Part shown: piece after piece, positions 32,092 through 39,790 of the stretch
How positions within the stretch are numbered: position 1 is the stretch's first letter
How the letters are laid out: every line of letters begins with the position of its first letter
Assembly (NCBI GenBank): GCA_903827265.1
Contig: CAIKHN010000024.1
Span: 3,332-67,331, forward strand
Direction: 5' to 3'
Length of the DNA: 64,000 nt
Source of the DNA: Candidatus Uhrbacteria bacterium
GTDB taxonomy: Bacteria > Patescibacteriota > Patescibacteriia > UBA9934
Program-made: the position numbers and the translations under genes
Notes under the pieces: model-generated
What the model saw: the letters and a program-made list of their open reading frames with translations, nothing else
Told to the model about the DNA's origin: nothing
The model's database searches: none

Positions 32092-32226
32092 GAGAGCTGG
32101 TGACTCGGGTACATGTTTCTTCACTCGCCGCAACGATCGTCACGCCCGACGTCTCGCTCTGCTCGACTGTGGCTGGACGACTGTGCGGTTCGTTGCGAAA
32201 CATGCACCCTCATCACTGGCGCTCTC
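32092..32226. repeat. palindromic intergenic repeat, family A copy 1 (REPIN/MITE-like, about 135 nt)
   Basis: Arms gagagc-tgg-gtga-ctc-gggtacatgtttc … gaaacatgcaccc-tca-tcac-tggc-gctctc. It is homologous in inverted orientation to the copies at 34648 and 39652. Confidence 0.75.
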
Positions 32227-32229
32227 AAT

Positions 32230-33087
32230 TTATTTCTTCTCAAGAACAAGGATGCGTTTTATACCGTGAACAGGATCGCCGTCGTTCCAATCACCAAGCG
32301 CGTTCATAACAACGGCGTATTTGTACGTGTAATTCTCTCCACGTCGTGTACCCGGATCATTCGCAATAAAATTCTCGGTGTCATACCCGCGAATAACAAA
32401 GAGGTGATACAGCGGACCGTCGCCGCTATAAAATGGGTTTCCCAATTCCTGACCTGCAGCAAGAGCAACGACCGGTGTTCCGGCATTGATGTACGCCTTT
32501 ATTTGATCGACGGTTGGATTGTCGACGACGGTTACAGTCATTGTTCCGAAATACGACTCGGCAAATTCCCCAAGTTCTGCAGCGGTCAAACTCGGTTTAA
32601 GACCCGCTTTCGTTTCTTTATCTACCATGTCGAGCAACACCAAATCGGCAGTTTTTGGATCGATCACGCCACTCACGCCAGCGTAATATTGTGCAACCAT
32701 GTACACCGAGGCTTCCTCGCATGTGTCCTCGTGAATAACGTCCCAATTTGCGTACGGTGCTTGCGATGTAAATGGTACGGCGAGATTTTTTGATGTTGGG
32801 GGCGGTGTCTGTATAACCTCCAACGCAACTTTTGCGATAGCGGAAAGATCAGGTGACGGAGGCGTCGCTGTTACCGGTTCCGGCGTCACTTCCTGTTGCT
32901 TCACTAATTCGTTATACGTCACCGATGGAACGGTCGACGTTGGCACAACGGGGCCGCCGTGAAGACGCTCGTACGCGTACAGCCCAACACTGACAACCGC
33001 GACAACACCGAACAGATAGCCGTACCACGGCTTCCATGGCCGCTGCTTTCCGTCGAATGGATTTTTGAGTAATCGATTCATGATCAT
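32230..33087 (-). CDS. C39-like cysteine peptidase domain protein, membrane-anchored
   Basis: N-terminal TM helix, Pro/Thr-rich linker, then a block VPFTSQAPYANWDV…CEEASVYMV resembling the Peptidase_C39_2 catalytic Cys region. Confidence 0.45.
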   Translation of the reverse strand: MIMNRLLKNPFDGKQRPWKPWYGYLFGVVAVVSVGLYAYERLHGGPVVPTSTVPSVTYNELVKQQEVTPEPVTATPPSPDLSAIAKVALEVIQTPPPTSKNLAVPFTSQAPYANWDVIHEDTCEEASVYMVAQYYAGVSGVIDPKTADLVLLDMVDKETKAGLKPSLTAAELGEFAESYFGTMTVTVVDNPTVDQIKAYINAGTPVVALAAGQELGNPFYSGDGPLYHLFVIRGYDTENFIANDPGTRRGENYTYKYAVVMNALGDWNDGDPVHGIKRILVLEKK

Positions 33088-33095
33088 AAAGGTTT

Positions 33096-33221
33096 GAGAA
33101 CGCTCTAATTTTAGGCTAGTTTCGATGAACGTCGAGCAAAGTTTCCGAGGTGTACTTCTCGGTACATCGAGGAAATTTGCGATGATGTGAGTCGAAAATA
33201 GACAAAATTAGAGCGTTCTCT
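33096..33221. repeat. palindromic repeat, family B copy 1 (126 nt, perfect 17-bp terminal inverted repeats)
   Basis: Left end gagaacgctctaatttt and right end aaaattagagcgttctc are exact reverse complements. The interior is homologous to 52733-52850. Confidence 0.7.
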
Positions 33222-34596
33222 GTTTTGCCCACTGGCGAACAACCCACGTCGCCCGCACATCATCCTCGTTGTAGCGCAACACGTCATTGAGCATTTCACG
33301 GTTCCCTGTTCGCAACCAATCTTCGTACCACAGCACCGAATTCAATCCCGATGCGTCGTCATGTCGCCAACGGAATCCTAAAAACTGCGCAATGTCTTTC
33401 AAAGAATAGAACGACAATGGGAAAATCACCGCTTCACGCAAGCGCTCAAGAACGTCAACGGATCGCTCGGCGAGATCGTCGACGAATCCTTCTGGCGCGC
33501 CATGACGCTGTGCCATTAATCGGAATACATCCTGTTCGTACCATCCATAGTGGTACACCGGAATGCCCGGACGCGACTCCATGAATGCGACAAAGGCGTC
33601 CCATGCTGCTTTTTCCTCGTCCTCTTTCTCTGCGAGGAAGGTATAAAACTCGTCACCTTGCGCATGAACATCGAGTACGCCAAAGAGGTAATGCAAATCA
33701 CGAAGCGGATCAGCTTCAATATCGACGACGAGCGCGTCGTCTGTTTTTGGAAAGTCGATCTTCCCGAGAACGACAGGCTTACCGTCGATCAGCGCCTTTG
33801 CCCCAAGAATAAGAAATTGCAAACGCTCTTGCGAAATACCTGGAACGCCACGCGCTAAAAGATCGGCATTCCGCGTAGAGAGTTCCGCGACCGTCATGAT
33901 GCCTGCGTCATTGAGCGCAGTCACCTCGCTTCGCCAAATGCGATTCATGCGCGAGAGATGGTCAGCAGCAAGCGTTTCTTTTTTACATTCATCAAACCAC
34001 GGCGACTGTTTGCAATCAGACGTCAGGAAATGCGGCTCGCGGATGCCTTCAAGGATGCGCTCAATGCCGTCGAGCGTCAGTCGGAACTTCGTTTGATATT
34101 CCTCAAGAACATACGCCTCGACCGTTCCGTCTGGCCGCATGATGTACCCTTGTTTTGGTTTCATGCCTTGAATACCGCGAAGAACCTCGGCGTAAAACGC
34201 GCCTTGTACGCAATATTCGTCCTTTAAATGACGAGAACGTTTAATGTCGCACGCAACATAATAATACTCACCGAAGTTCGATTTTCCAGAAACACGCTCA
34301 AACAAATCAGGCTTCGCAACCCAATGACCGTGAATAAGAACGCCGCCATAAATGGATTGCGCACCTTGCTTCATCAATTCAAGCGTTTTCGCAAAAGCGG
34401 CATCTTCCGTCTCCGCCGAAACTTCGATCGATTTTCGTGTAACCAAAATTGCGCGCTCTTGCTCCTGAATCAAGGCGTCGTCCTGTACTCGCGCACGCAT
34501 CGGGTCGTCCCGGTGCGGCAACGTCGCGTCAAACCAGATCCACGATGGACATTTGAGATACCGATAAAAGCTCTGTTTGGTAATGCGTTTGGACAT
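33208..34596 (-). CDS. RecB-family nuclease, TM0106-like (PD-(D/E)xK N-domain plus RNase-H-like C-domain), putative
   Basis: A Y..CDIKRSRHLKDEY block (PD-ExK-like) and a C-terminal VVDIEADP…YLFGV… block (exonuclease-like). Start taken at MSKRITK (34596); the upstream extension is repeat-derived. Confidence 0.45.
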   Translation of the reverse strand: MSKRITKQSFYRYLKCPSWIWFDATLPHRDDPMRARVQDDALIQEQERAILVTRKSIEVSAETEDAAFAKTLELMKQGAQSIYGGVLIHGHWVAKPDLFERVSGKSNFGEYYYVACDIKRSRHLKDEYCVQGAFYAEVLRGIQGMKPKQGYIMRPDGTVEAYVLEEYQTKFRLTLDGIERILEGIREPHFLTSDCKQSPWFDECKKETLAADHLSRMNRIWRSEVTALNDAGIMTVAELSTRNADLLARGVPGISQERLQFLILGAKALIDGKPVVLGKIDFPKTDDALVVDIEADPLRDLHYLFGVLDVHAQGDEFYTFLAEKEDEEKAAWDAFVAFMESRPGIPVYHYGWYEQDVFRLMAQRHGAPEGFVDDLAERSVDVLERLREAVIFPLSFYSLKDIAQFLGFRWRHDDASGLNSVLWYEDWLRTGNREMLNDVLRYNEDDVRATWVVRQWAKQRTL

Positions 34597-34647
34597 AAAA
34601 ACAGTGTACAGGACTATGACGCGAAGGTGAATGCACACCAGGTATCG

Positions 34648-38725: not shown

Positions 38726-38907
38726 ATCTTCATCGAGCAATCTATGAACTCTATCGCGATTCGTCACTACAACGTGACGGCTGCTTATTGCACCTCGCCT
38801 TTCAACACGAAGCGTCACGAAGTTGCAAAACAGATTCGTCAGTTTCTCAATCTTCGCCGATTCCGGAAGCATATTCGTTCATTCGCGCCACTGAGACTTG
38901 CATAACT

Positions 38908-39219
38908 ATGGAGATCCAAGAAATCACCGATAAGGTTCATCGCGTCGCCGATCGATACAGCAAAGAATTTGGCGTGGAGTATGCGAGTGACTGGTTTCTC
39001 CTGAAACTTCAAGAGGAGCTCGGAGAGATGACTCGCGCACATCTTATACTCACGAATCGAACCCGTCGAAAGGTTTCATCAGAACAGGAAGGAAAAACGG
39101 CGCTCGCCGAAGAAATTGCCGATGTCTTCGCATATGTTCTTCTTTTTGCAAAACAGATGAACATCGATGTCGAGGATGCAATCACGAAGAAGTGGTTCCC
39201 GTATTTAGAAAACAAATGA
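38908..39219 (+). CDS. MazG-like nucleoside triphosphate pyrophosphohydrolase (small all-alpha NTP-PPase)
   Basis: About 100 aa with an EEVGEL/ELGDVL-like pattern (LQEELGEMT…EEIADVFAYVLLFA). Start at the internal ATG 38908. Confidence 0.6.
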   Translation: MEIQEITDKVHRVADRYSKEFGVEYASDWFLLKLQEELGEMTRAHLILTNRTRRKVSSEQEGKTALAEEIADVFAYVLLFAKQMNIDVEDAITKKWFPYLENK

Positions 39220-39223
39220 TGCT

Positions 39224-39475
39224 ATGTCTGTTCATGAACTCCTCAACGAACCTGTCGAAGTCCGTGTCGAGTTTGCAGGAAAACGCGTTCATCCAACACA
39301 TGTTCATTGGGGAAAGAAAACGTACGCCATGAAGAAGGTAAACCTCGTACACGGCACAAACGAAGGCGAGAAACGCATCTACTATTTCTCTGTTTCAGAC
39401 GACACGTCATTCATGAAACTTCGTTTAGACACTGGAGCCTTAGAGTGGAGAATCGTAGAATTTTATAGCGAATAA
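39224..39475 (+). CDS. hypothetical small protein
   Basis: 83-aa ORF with a 4-nt gap after the MazG-like gene. Confidence 0.4.
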   Translation: MSVHELLNEPVEVRVEFAGKRVHPTHVHWGKKTYAMKKVNLVHGTNEGEKRIYYFSVSDDTSFMKLRLDTGALEWRIVEFYSE

Positions 39476-39651
39476 ATATGAACACCCGTCGGAGGACCGG
39501 ATCACGTTTCACATTTTCACTCAGCGAGATTCTCTCATCACACGTACAGAAAACCCGTAAACATCGCAGCGTCCCAAAGCCGAGCACTCACGCACGACGG
39601 TTTGAGAACAATCTTCGCTTGCCACTCGCGCTGCTGAATCGGGAATAACAT

Positions 39652-39790
39652 CGCAAGCGCCAGTGGCGAGGATACATGTTTCGCAACGAGCAGTGCACCC
39701 ATCCAGCCGTAGTCGAGCGCGAGCGAGACGTCACGGCGTGATGGCGTTCACGCACAGTGAAGAAACATGTATCCGAGCCACCAGTTTGCG
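39652..39790. repeat. family A repeat copy 3
   Basis: Nested stems cgcaa/ttgcg, gtggc/gccac and ggatacatgtttc/gaaacatgtatcc (perfect 13 bp). The interior is homologous to copy 2. Confidence 0.75.

Follow-up and report, generated by a model that had tools for sequence, protein, structure and literature searches.

A 64,000-nt stretch of bacterial chromosome from a Candidatus Uhrbacteria bacterium (NCBI GenBank assembly GCA_903827265.1, contig CAIKHN010000024.1, positions 3,332 to 67,331 of the forward strand; hereafter the window, about 50% GC) carries three copies, c1 to c3, of an intergenic palindrome that we call family A. In intact copies, compensatory changes preserve a single long hairpin, and copies are gained and lost at gene boundaries, with clean empty sites and no target-site duplication; they can also recombine with one another, or else confuse an assembler, and they can decay. 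On balance, we lean towards viewing family A as a low-copy family of non-autonomous, dispersed intergenic palindromes in an Uhrbacteria-like clade of Patescibacteria, similar in behavior to REPINs (paired repetitive extragenic palindromic, or REP, sequences), ERIC (enterobacterial repetitive intergenic consensus) elements and MITEs (miniature inverted-repeat transposable elements). The general kind is known and the family itself is new; full-text literature searches found no description of such repeats in Patescibacteria.

A hairpin kept through compensatory changes

A preliminary description of this DNA had proposed three palindromic copies whose two arms change together, and the data bear this out. 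The copies lie within 2-4 nt of the positions first proposed and contain the arm motifs: a 13-bp GGGTGCATGTTTC/GAAACATGTACCC stem, GTGRC/GYCAC, a 9-bp outer stem, and GCCGC..GCGGC in some copies versus GCCGT..ACGGC in others. A repeat finder recovers all three as direct and inverted families, and the window holds the pattern CATGTTTC-N60-90-GAAACATG three times, where shuffles predict 0.00; mismatch-tolerant searches gave no further family-A copy in the 64 kb. Throughout, the functional orientation is the strand on which c2 and c3 are written as plus, and the functional strand of c1 is minus. The window copies are 75-81% identical, c1 being 75% identical to either of the others.

A single long hairpin is the predicted fold of every copy. 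Under RNA parameters, the minimum free energies of the three window copies on the preferred strand are -74.8, -68.0 and -75.5 kcal/mol (z = -8.5, -7.1 and -9.6), and those on the opposite strand are -59.8, -60.8 and -71.0 kcal/mol. The RNAalifold consensus of the seven distinct copies, which include four from other genomes, holds 44 pairs in seven helices. Standard pairs form in 96.6% of the cells, against 87.5 ± 1.0% in shuffles and 23.0-46.6% in slid controls, and 19 of the 44 pairs have changed on both sides, against 8.8 ± 2.0 in shuffles (0/500 reach 19) and 1-2 in slid controls. The wobble cells are heavily one-sided, with 16 G.T cells at eight positions versus two A.C cells at two, and a covariance model (CM) derived from six of the copies gives the known copies 142-167 bits on one strand, compared with 22-43 on the opposite one; c1, for instance, scores 159.5 bits on minus against 38.7 on plus. 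One-strand wobbles and one-strand scores together mean that the fold belongs to one strand. As the paired changes are genuine, clearly exceed what the controls give and are tied to one strand, the data support constraint on a single-stranded hairpin, either RNA or single-stranded DNA, which is what the preliminary description had suggested.

The pattern of conservation is uneven. A 9-bp stem, CAUGUUUC/GAAACAUG, is invariant in intact copies together with a closing G.U (conserved in six of the seven copies), and so are the internal loops: a 3x3 GCA/GAA, an asymmetric GCCA/CA and two symmetric GA/GA loops. Covariation is seen in the outer stem and in the inner helices. The ends read AT(C/T)G...CGAT with a middle that covaries; a GNRA-like apex is present in one copy. 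Complementarity between the arms stops at the element ends, and an origin of the outer stem from the flanking target, as seen in a second palindrome family of these genomes (family B, below), is therefore rejected for family A. Weak CM matches at window 55418-55484 and 53064-53114 fall in coding or other sequence and are not family A.

Gain, loss and decay at gene boundaries

As previously described, all three window copies are intergenic and the open reading frames (ORFs) that cross them are spurious: indels between the copies shift the frame, the "peptides" they appear to share are therefore spurious too, and coding potential is ruled out. The c1 element ends about 15-16 nt from the start of xseA (32072) and is sense to both xseA and the C39-like peptidase gene. 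At the other side of the nuclease gene, c2 is 8 nt from the bidirectional terminator (34793-34816) of a cyclophilin gene and antisense to both its neighbors. The third copy was said to sit between a small gene of the SOS cluster and dinB, and it does so, in sense orientation, 1 nt past the stop of a conserved 56-aa ORF (39478-39648) and 114 nt ahead of the dinB ATG, the real start being 39907. The full gene order is xseB, xseA, c1, C39-like peptidase, a family-B palindrome, the TM0106-family RecB-like nuclease, c2, the terminator, cyclophilin, metK, lexA, a MazG-like gene, an 83-aa ORF, the 56-aa ORF, c3 and dinB. The GC skew of the plus strand is negative throughout the window and the copies lie on both strands, so that no consistent lagging-template bias is seen, although three copies are uninformative in this respect.

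At 32147-32150, c1 of the window is one T short (GACGTCG-GGCG) relative to GACGTCGTGGCG at 12452-12456 of L009, from the same species and 99.99% identical (loci in other assemblies are numbered L001 onwards). One base pair is broken by this loss, which reflects a strain polymorphism or else an error in the sequence.

An exact scan of the invariant arm positions through 185,579 species-representative genomes and a metagenome collection retrieved four further copies, L001-L004, in three Patescibacteria metagenome-assembled genomes (MAGs; Table 1); one additional match in the metagenome scan (L007) is a chance hit in AT-rich coding DNA. The related DNA examined amounts to only about 370 kb, and all copy numbers per genome are lower bounds. 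The c1 element is nearer to L004 (85.7%) and L003 (81.6%) than to its two companions in the window, and there are therefore subfamilies common to different genomes. No conserved flanks surround the copies and, of seven, two are sense and four to five antisense to both neighboring genes. Contig L008, from a strain with 99.86% identity to the window, is collinear with it as far as the middle of c1 and then runs on into an ftsE/ftsX context in place of xseA. At the switch, 12366-12499, it has a hybrid family-A copy whose right outer arm is foreign and which has lost 14 nt internally between direct repeats of CACAGTCG. The hybrid arose by recombination of two copies or else as a chimera of the assembly, and in both cases it reveals a fourth copy in this organism, near ftsE. 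That fourth copy and the copies at unrelated loci of other genomes rule out a local segmental duplication, one of the ways in which the proposal of a dispersed family could have failed, and occupied and empty states alternate among syntenic relatives.

The empty sites that the preliminary description had recommended looking for exist. We gathered syntenic contigs via homologues of the RecB-like nuclease and searched them with the CM with its filters off; L011, L014, L016, L017, L018 and L019/L020 contain no family-A copy. At these copy-free loci, the RecB-like protein is 95% (L017), 92% (L018), 86% (L014), 79% (L019/L020), 77% (L011) and 67% (L016) identical to that of the window, and the relatives have the same operons without the element. 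The c1 site in L014 reads simply TAA-GT-ATG, where the window has TAA, the 141-nt element, about 15 nt and ATG. Between the orthologue of the 56-aa ORF and dinB there are 6 nt in L014 and 9 nt in L016, against the element plus 114 nt in the window. Neither the c1 site (TAA/element/GT...) nor the c3 site (TAA-C/element/TTAAAA...) shows a target-site duplication.

Decay is visible at L010 4791-4931, an orthologue of c3 in which a family-B palindrome has taken the place of the right arm and substitutions have entered the otherwise invariant stem, a pattern that suggests relaxed constraint after the hairpin was broken. A small XRE-type helix-turn-helix (HTH) gene stands directly upstream of the RecB-like gene in L001 (795-1047), L014 (5988-6215) and L017 (4428-4655); in the window (34597-34643), this gene is gone and c2 is in place, with the last ~15 nt of the spacer (TAGTCCTGTACACTG) retained. 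The loss looks like a deletion adjacent to c2, and the retention of the spacer end in the absence of the gene makes c2 and the L001 copy probably orthologous. The two copies are 70% identical and differ at 16 stem pairs, of which 11 are compensated, one is a wobble and four are broken. L001 is a close relative, with xseA 89% and the RecB-like protein 94% identical to those of the window; coding DNA is 77-80% identical, and fourfold-degenerate sites in xseA are only 45% identical, that is, saturated.

Table 1. Positions and settings of family-A copies, the Y1/HUH gene and companion repeats
Feature	Sequence	Coordinates	Strand	Setting
Family A, c1	window	32089..32229	-	141 nt; directly 3' of the TAA stop of the C39-like peptidase gene (32230-33081, -)
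Family A, c2	window	34644..34784	+	141 nt; 48 nt upstream of the RecB-like (TM0106 family) nuclease gene (33208-34596, -)
Family A, c3	window	39650..39792	+	143 nt; within the lexA / MazG-like / 83-aa / 56-aa / dinB gene string
Family A, L001	Ca. Uhrbacteria			upstream of the HTH gene and RecB-like nuclease gene
Family A, L002	MAG labelled Gammaproteobacteria (shared with L004)			upstream of dnaA; contig ends inside the element
Family A, L003 (= L005 = L006, identical)	Patescibacteria H41-bin182			between the dnaE 3' end and an unknown gene
Family A, L004	MAG labelled Gammaproteobacteria (shared with L002)			between a GH42-like gene and a SpoU methylase gene
Y1/HUH tyrosine transposase gene, TIRYT type	window	10638..11486	-	282 aa; Y1_Tnp, C-terminal HTH; candidate mobilizer
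TIRtron 3' terminal inverted repeat	window	10630..10662		overlaps the last TIRYT codons; contains GGGGTCAG (GGGGWSAS motif)
TIRtron 5' terminal inverted repeat	window	11491..11523		33 nt
REP-like hairpin, degenerate	window	39807..39826	+	14 nt 3' of c3
REP-like hairpin, solo	window	30772..30791	-	xseA/xseB spacer; 0 mismatches to the consensus on the minus strand
REP-like hairpin	L003	6231-6250		15 nt 3' of the L003 copy
REP-like hairpin	L008	12505-12524		8 nt 3' of the L008 hybrid copy
REP-like hairpin	L023	15271-15290
Family B	window	33093-33225
Family B	window	52732-52842
Family B	L010	13607-13741
Family B	L010	15178-15312
Family B	L023	10934-11061
Family B	L023	11239-11365

Mobilization and competing explanations

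If family A is a dispersed, non-autonomous element, its hairpin would be recognized in single-stranded form, the likeliest route being single-stranded DNA in a peel-and-paste style of mobilization by an HUH/Y1 enzyme. We regard this route as the most economical because no target-site duplication is left, structure rather than termini would be recognized, wobble pairs are biased to one strand and a Y1/HUH enzyme is present. The only such enzyme seen is the syntenic transposase of Table 1, our candidate for the mobilizer of family A, and REP-like hairpins stand beside three of the copies.

The enzyme passes NCBIfam model NF047646 for REP-associated tyrosine transposases (RAYTs) at 81.7 bits with a cut-off of 80, matches PF01797 at 3.6e-12 and HTH_23 at its C-terminus, and has conserved HUH and catalytic tyrosine motifs (NHYHLLIET and ARYIVLNP). 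Its gene is single-copy and occupies the same mreB / GT4 / trmB / Y1 / holB slot in three genomes, the protein being 58-62% identical (L023, L027); one of the genomes syntenic at this slot also carries the L003 copy of family A. In all three, 33-nt inverted repeats with GGGGTCAG bracket the gene, the 3' one extending into its final codons, and form in the window a complete TIRtron at 10630-11523. TIRtrons are defined by a TIRYT with a Y1 core and C-terminal HTH, and by terminal inverted repeats (TIRs) with GGGGWSAS, the 3' TIR overlapping the gene end (PMC3733652, PMC6006769), and on its sequence features the gene with its 33-nt repeats is this published arrangement. The likeness does not extend to family A, which shares no TIR sequence, and the examined DNA showed no dispersed TIR family.

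The preliminary description had suggested REP/REPIN elements mobilized by a RAYT, and only part of this holds: the copies are dispersed and a Y1/HUH gene is present in the window, but the arms do not consist of REPs, and the gene, a TIRYT, has unrelated GGGGWSAS repeats on its two sides. REPINs consist of two short inverted REP sequences, each a small palindrome with a terminal GTAG or CGTC tag (PMC3337134, PMC3733652). With the REPIN/RAYT system (PMC3116915, PMC5581495), family A shares a non-coding intergenic hairpin of ~100-150 nt with compensatory stem changes and dispersed copies with occupied/empty polymorphism, and the window genome shares a single-copy, vertically inherited Y1/HUH gene that passes the RAYT model. 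Unlike in REPINs, the arms of family A form no consistent hairpins of their own and lack the terminal tag, conservation is highest in the middle stem and internal loops rather than at the ends, the data seen hold one to four copies rather than tens to hundreds, and in three genomes the Y1 gene is flanked by its own TIRs and not by family A. The arms without REP hairpins or tags, and the Y1 gene without flanking family-A copies, rule out a strict REPIN identity.

The ERIC elements (also called IRU) of Enterobacteriaceae are 127-bp imperfect palindromes found in operon spacers in either orientation, with variable occupancy, a conserved secondary structure and no known transposase. Family A resembles them in being a single long imperfect palindrome of similar length, in short intergenic spacers of operons in both orientations, with variable occupancy, conserved folding and no known transposase; it differs in having no sequence similarity, in belonging to another phylum, in its far fewer copies and in the short REP-like hairpin on its 3' side. 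MITEs of the DDE type (Correia/NEMIS, RUP; PMC10969869) are likewise small, non-coding and intergenic, with inverted-repeat arms, insertion polymorphism and the ability to fold in read-through transcripts. Unlike these, family A lacks a target-site duplication at the two sites with an empty allele, and its outermost pairs vary and covary instead of making up conserved transposase-binding termini; no longer element or parent insertion sequence with family-A ends was found in the ~370 kb. On these data, family A falls outside the definition of a DDE-type MITE. PATEs and other derivatives of IS200-IS605 are non-autonomous, expected to move as single-stranded DNA via a Y1 enzyme, leave no target-site duplication and depend on hairpin recognition, all in line with family A, which lacks, however, their paired similar subterminal hairpins, the conserved cleavage/guide tetranucleotide and any linked TnpA or TnpB. 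No resemblance to phage DNA, plasmid DNA or viral contigs was found.

Several observations weigh against mobilization as the explanation. The repeats that flank the Y1 gene (GGGGTCAGGTCTTGAAT...) have no relation to family A and no dispersed copies, and the CM detects nothing of family A in the DNA within 10 kb of the gene. The TIRYTs belong to subclass 2.1 and have no REPs in their vicinity (PMC3733652, PMC6006769), and no REP partners have been found for this subclass (PMC6006769). Furthermore, the ~280-aa Y1+HTH family has over 8000 hits in Patescibacteria and, being so common, its co-occurrence with family A proves little. Copy number appears low, one to four per genome in the data seen; exact-pattern matches number one or two per representative MAG, such assemblies having gaps and breaking where repeats lie, and for this organism the count is four or more. 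With same-genome copies only 75-81% identical, no recent transposition burst is visible, and no conserved target or guide tetranucleotide was seen at the family-A ends. If c2 and the L001 copy are indeed orthologous, their structure has been kept across saturated synonymous divergence, which argues for constraint in place, beyond selection for mobility. Finally, the advantage of the preferred strand is 4.5-15 kcal/mol with RNA parameters and only 0-3.4 with DNA parameters, an asymmetry that, as modeled, fits RNA somewhat better than single-stranded DNA, with which it is also compatible.

These last two points lead to the strongest rival, a structured RNA with a function for the host, be it a family of small RNAs or a hairpin acting in cis on mRNA (for stability, processing or protein binding), held in place by selection on the fold; we consider it unlikely but far from negligible. 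The strong covariation speaks for it, as do the G.U closing pair and the excess of G.U over A.C cells, the invariant internal loops with their tandem GA/GA and the one GNRA-like apex. So do the positions of c1 and c3, sense within operons and abutting stop codons, and the intrinsic terminator 8 nt 3' of c2 on the element's strand, although that terminator is the cyclophilin gene's own. Against this, the closest relatives by neighboring gene (L017 and L018) and the other syntenic genomes lack a copy, their flanking genes abutting, most copies are antisense to both neighbors, the orthologous copy in L010 was allowed to decay, and Rfam 15 gives no match overlapping any copy, at gathering thresholds or at E<=10. 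For a positionally conserved small RNA gene in particular, which the preliminary description had offered as an alternative, the fit is poor, since occupancy is patchy, orientation is mixed and family A has no promoter-like site of its own; nor does it have its own terminator, and its position is not conserved across relatives. A dispersed element would still fold as RNA wherever it is transcribed: the sense copies inside operons (c1 in the spacer that separates xseA from the C39 peptidase gene, c3 in the one that separates dinB from the small ORFs of the SOS cluster) would also fold in mRNA, as REP, ERIC and Correia elements do, and could alter the stability or the coupling of the flanking cistrons.

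A wider proposal would combine the two ideas: families A and B and the REP-like hairpin could be in-trans substrates of a domesticated TIRYT-class Y1 enzyme near-universal in the clade, with hairpins long retained in place through a benefit to the host, for example as RNA or single-stranded DNA structures in replication and repair operons. We hold this to be doubtful; if true, it would give the TIRYTs a concrete set of substrates in organisms with genomes of ~1 Mb.

Doubtful, too, is a purely mutational origin, in which family A consists of neutral DNA palindromes and the complementarity of the arms stems from intrastrand template switching, by quasipalindrome correction or palindrome extension. 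The idea draws on family B, ~130-nt AT-rich palindromes with conserved inner parts and GA/GA loops and with copy-specific, perfectly complementary outer stems. At the junction of the RecB-like and C39 genes, the 5' arm of family B coincides with the last four codons and stop codon of the RecB-like gene, and its 3' arm repeats this gene end in inverted form; the site is empty in L017, L010 and L011, where the genes overlap or abut. Arms copied from flanks mean that a palindrome-building process does operate on DNA in these genomes, and such a process could yield some "compensatory" changes without selection. The outer stems of family A, however, are not derived from its flanks, and its non-complementary loops GCA/GAA, GCCA/CA and GA/GA persist in all copies, in different genomes, with no correction to perfect palindromes. 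A strand-symmetric process is not expected to leave a strand asymmetry of 16 to 2, and the copy that has lost its partner arm (L010) has mutated at otherwise invariant positions, pointing to constraint on the intact ones.

It is, lastly, very improbable that family A is a double-stranded protein-binding site, such as a carrier of LexA operators or of another regulator's site: its neighbors include xseA, the RecB-like nuclease gene, dinB in the lexA cluster, dnaA and dnaE, and it has two inverted GRTRCATGTTTC motifs ~85 bp apart, but compensatory changes and G.T asymmetry are traits of single-strand folding and not of duplex recognition, relatives run these operons without it, and the candidate LexA operator, a GTTCG-N6-GTTCG direct repeat that five genomes conserve ahead of lexA, does not occur in the element, which rules out a LexA-box carrier.

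Companion palindromes and neighboring features

The REP-like hairpin has the consensus CTGG-ATCCCCGC-CTAC-GCGGGGAT-GAC, is GC-rich and shows GTAG in the loop on the opposite strand. Its five distinct copies in the examined DNA lie in operon spacers, three of them 8-15 nt 3' of family A and in the same orientation. In L023, two family-B copies follow directly downstream of the TIRYT gene. Further unrelated long palindromes occur at L019 8305-8443 and 1759-1867, L011 12300-12385 and L001 3450-3500, with RNA minimum free energies down to -88.7 kcal/mol (151 nt); the weak CM matches to the two in L019 and to the family-B copies at L010 15178-15312 and window 33093-33225 belong to these other families and not to family A. 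The c1 site in L011 and L001 is occupied by one of these unrelated palindromes (CCTGAACGAAGTGAAGG...), and the same gene junctions are thus reused by different palindrome families.

Patescibacteria (the Candidate Phyla Radiation) have very small, streamlined genomes whose non-coding DNA is almost unstudied. These genomes still keep several long-hairpin repeat families, a short hairpin of REP-like type and a domesticated Y1/HUH enzyme in syntenic position, an element set like that of REP and RAYT outside Proteobacteria, where such systems were defined. The elements are placed precisely where genes meet in operons for replication, repair and the SOS response; they coincide with breaks in synteny and with one or more contigs that are recombinant or chimeric, and so matter for genome rearrangement and MAG assembly. 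Family A also offers a defined sequence set for testing recognition by TIRYTs and for weighing single-stranded DNA mobilization against RNA function and templated repair.

The candidate LexA operator of the direct-repeat type GTTCG-N6-GTTCG (GTTC-N7-GTTC) is found at window 38051-38066 and 38076-38090, upstream of lexA, and also at 41796-41811, 18573 and 47946. The lexA boxes overlap a TTG...TATGAT promoter, and the arrangement is near-identical upstream of lexA in L010, L014, L016 and L017. The box at 41796-41811 belongs to the promoter region (41787-41811) of a tRNA gene at 41696-41768 on the minus strand, where a TGTTATAAT promoter is overlapped by GTTCGTATTCTGTTCG, which matches the operator-like box of lexA at 15/16 positions. 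The tRNA scores 46 bits in Rfam, has an apparent 8-nt anticodon loop, CUUAUCAU, and is called "Asp (atc)" by ARAGORN; it may be an unusual tRNA under SOS control next to dinB.

Elsewhere in the window, a perfect 39-nt direct repeat (55508-55546 and 56036-56074) contains a GC-rich hairpin (CGCGCCCCGG...CCGGGGCGCG) and flanks a small membrane-protein-like ORF. In L011, a bAvd gene and a reverse-transcriptase fragment lie between metK and the cyclophilin gene (6468-7673), apparently an inserted diversity-generating retroelement.

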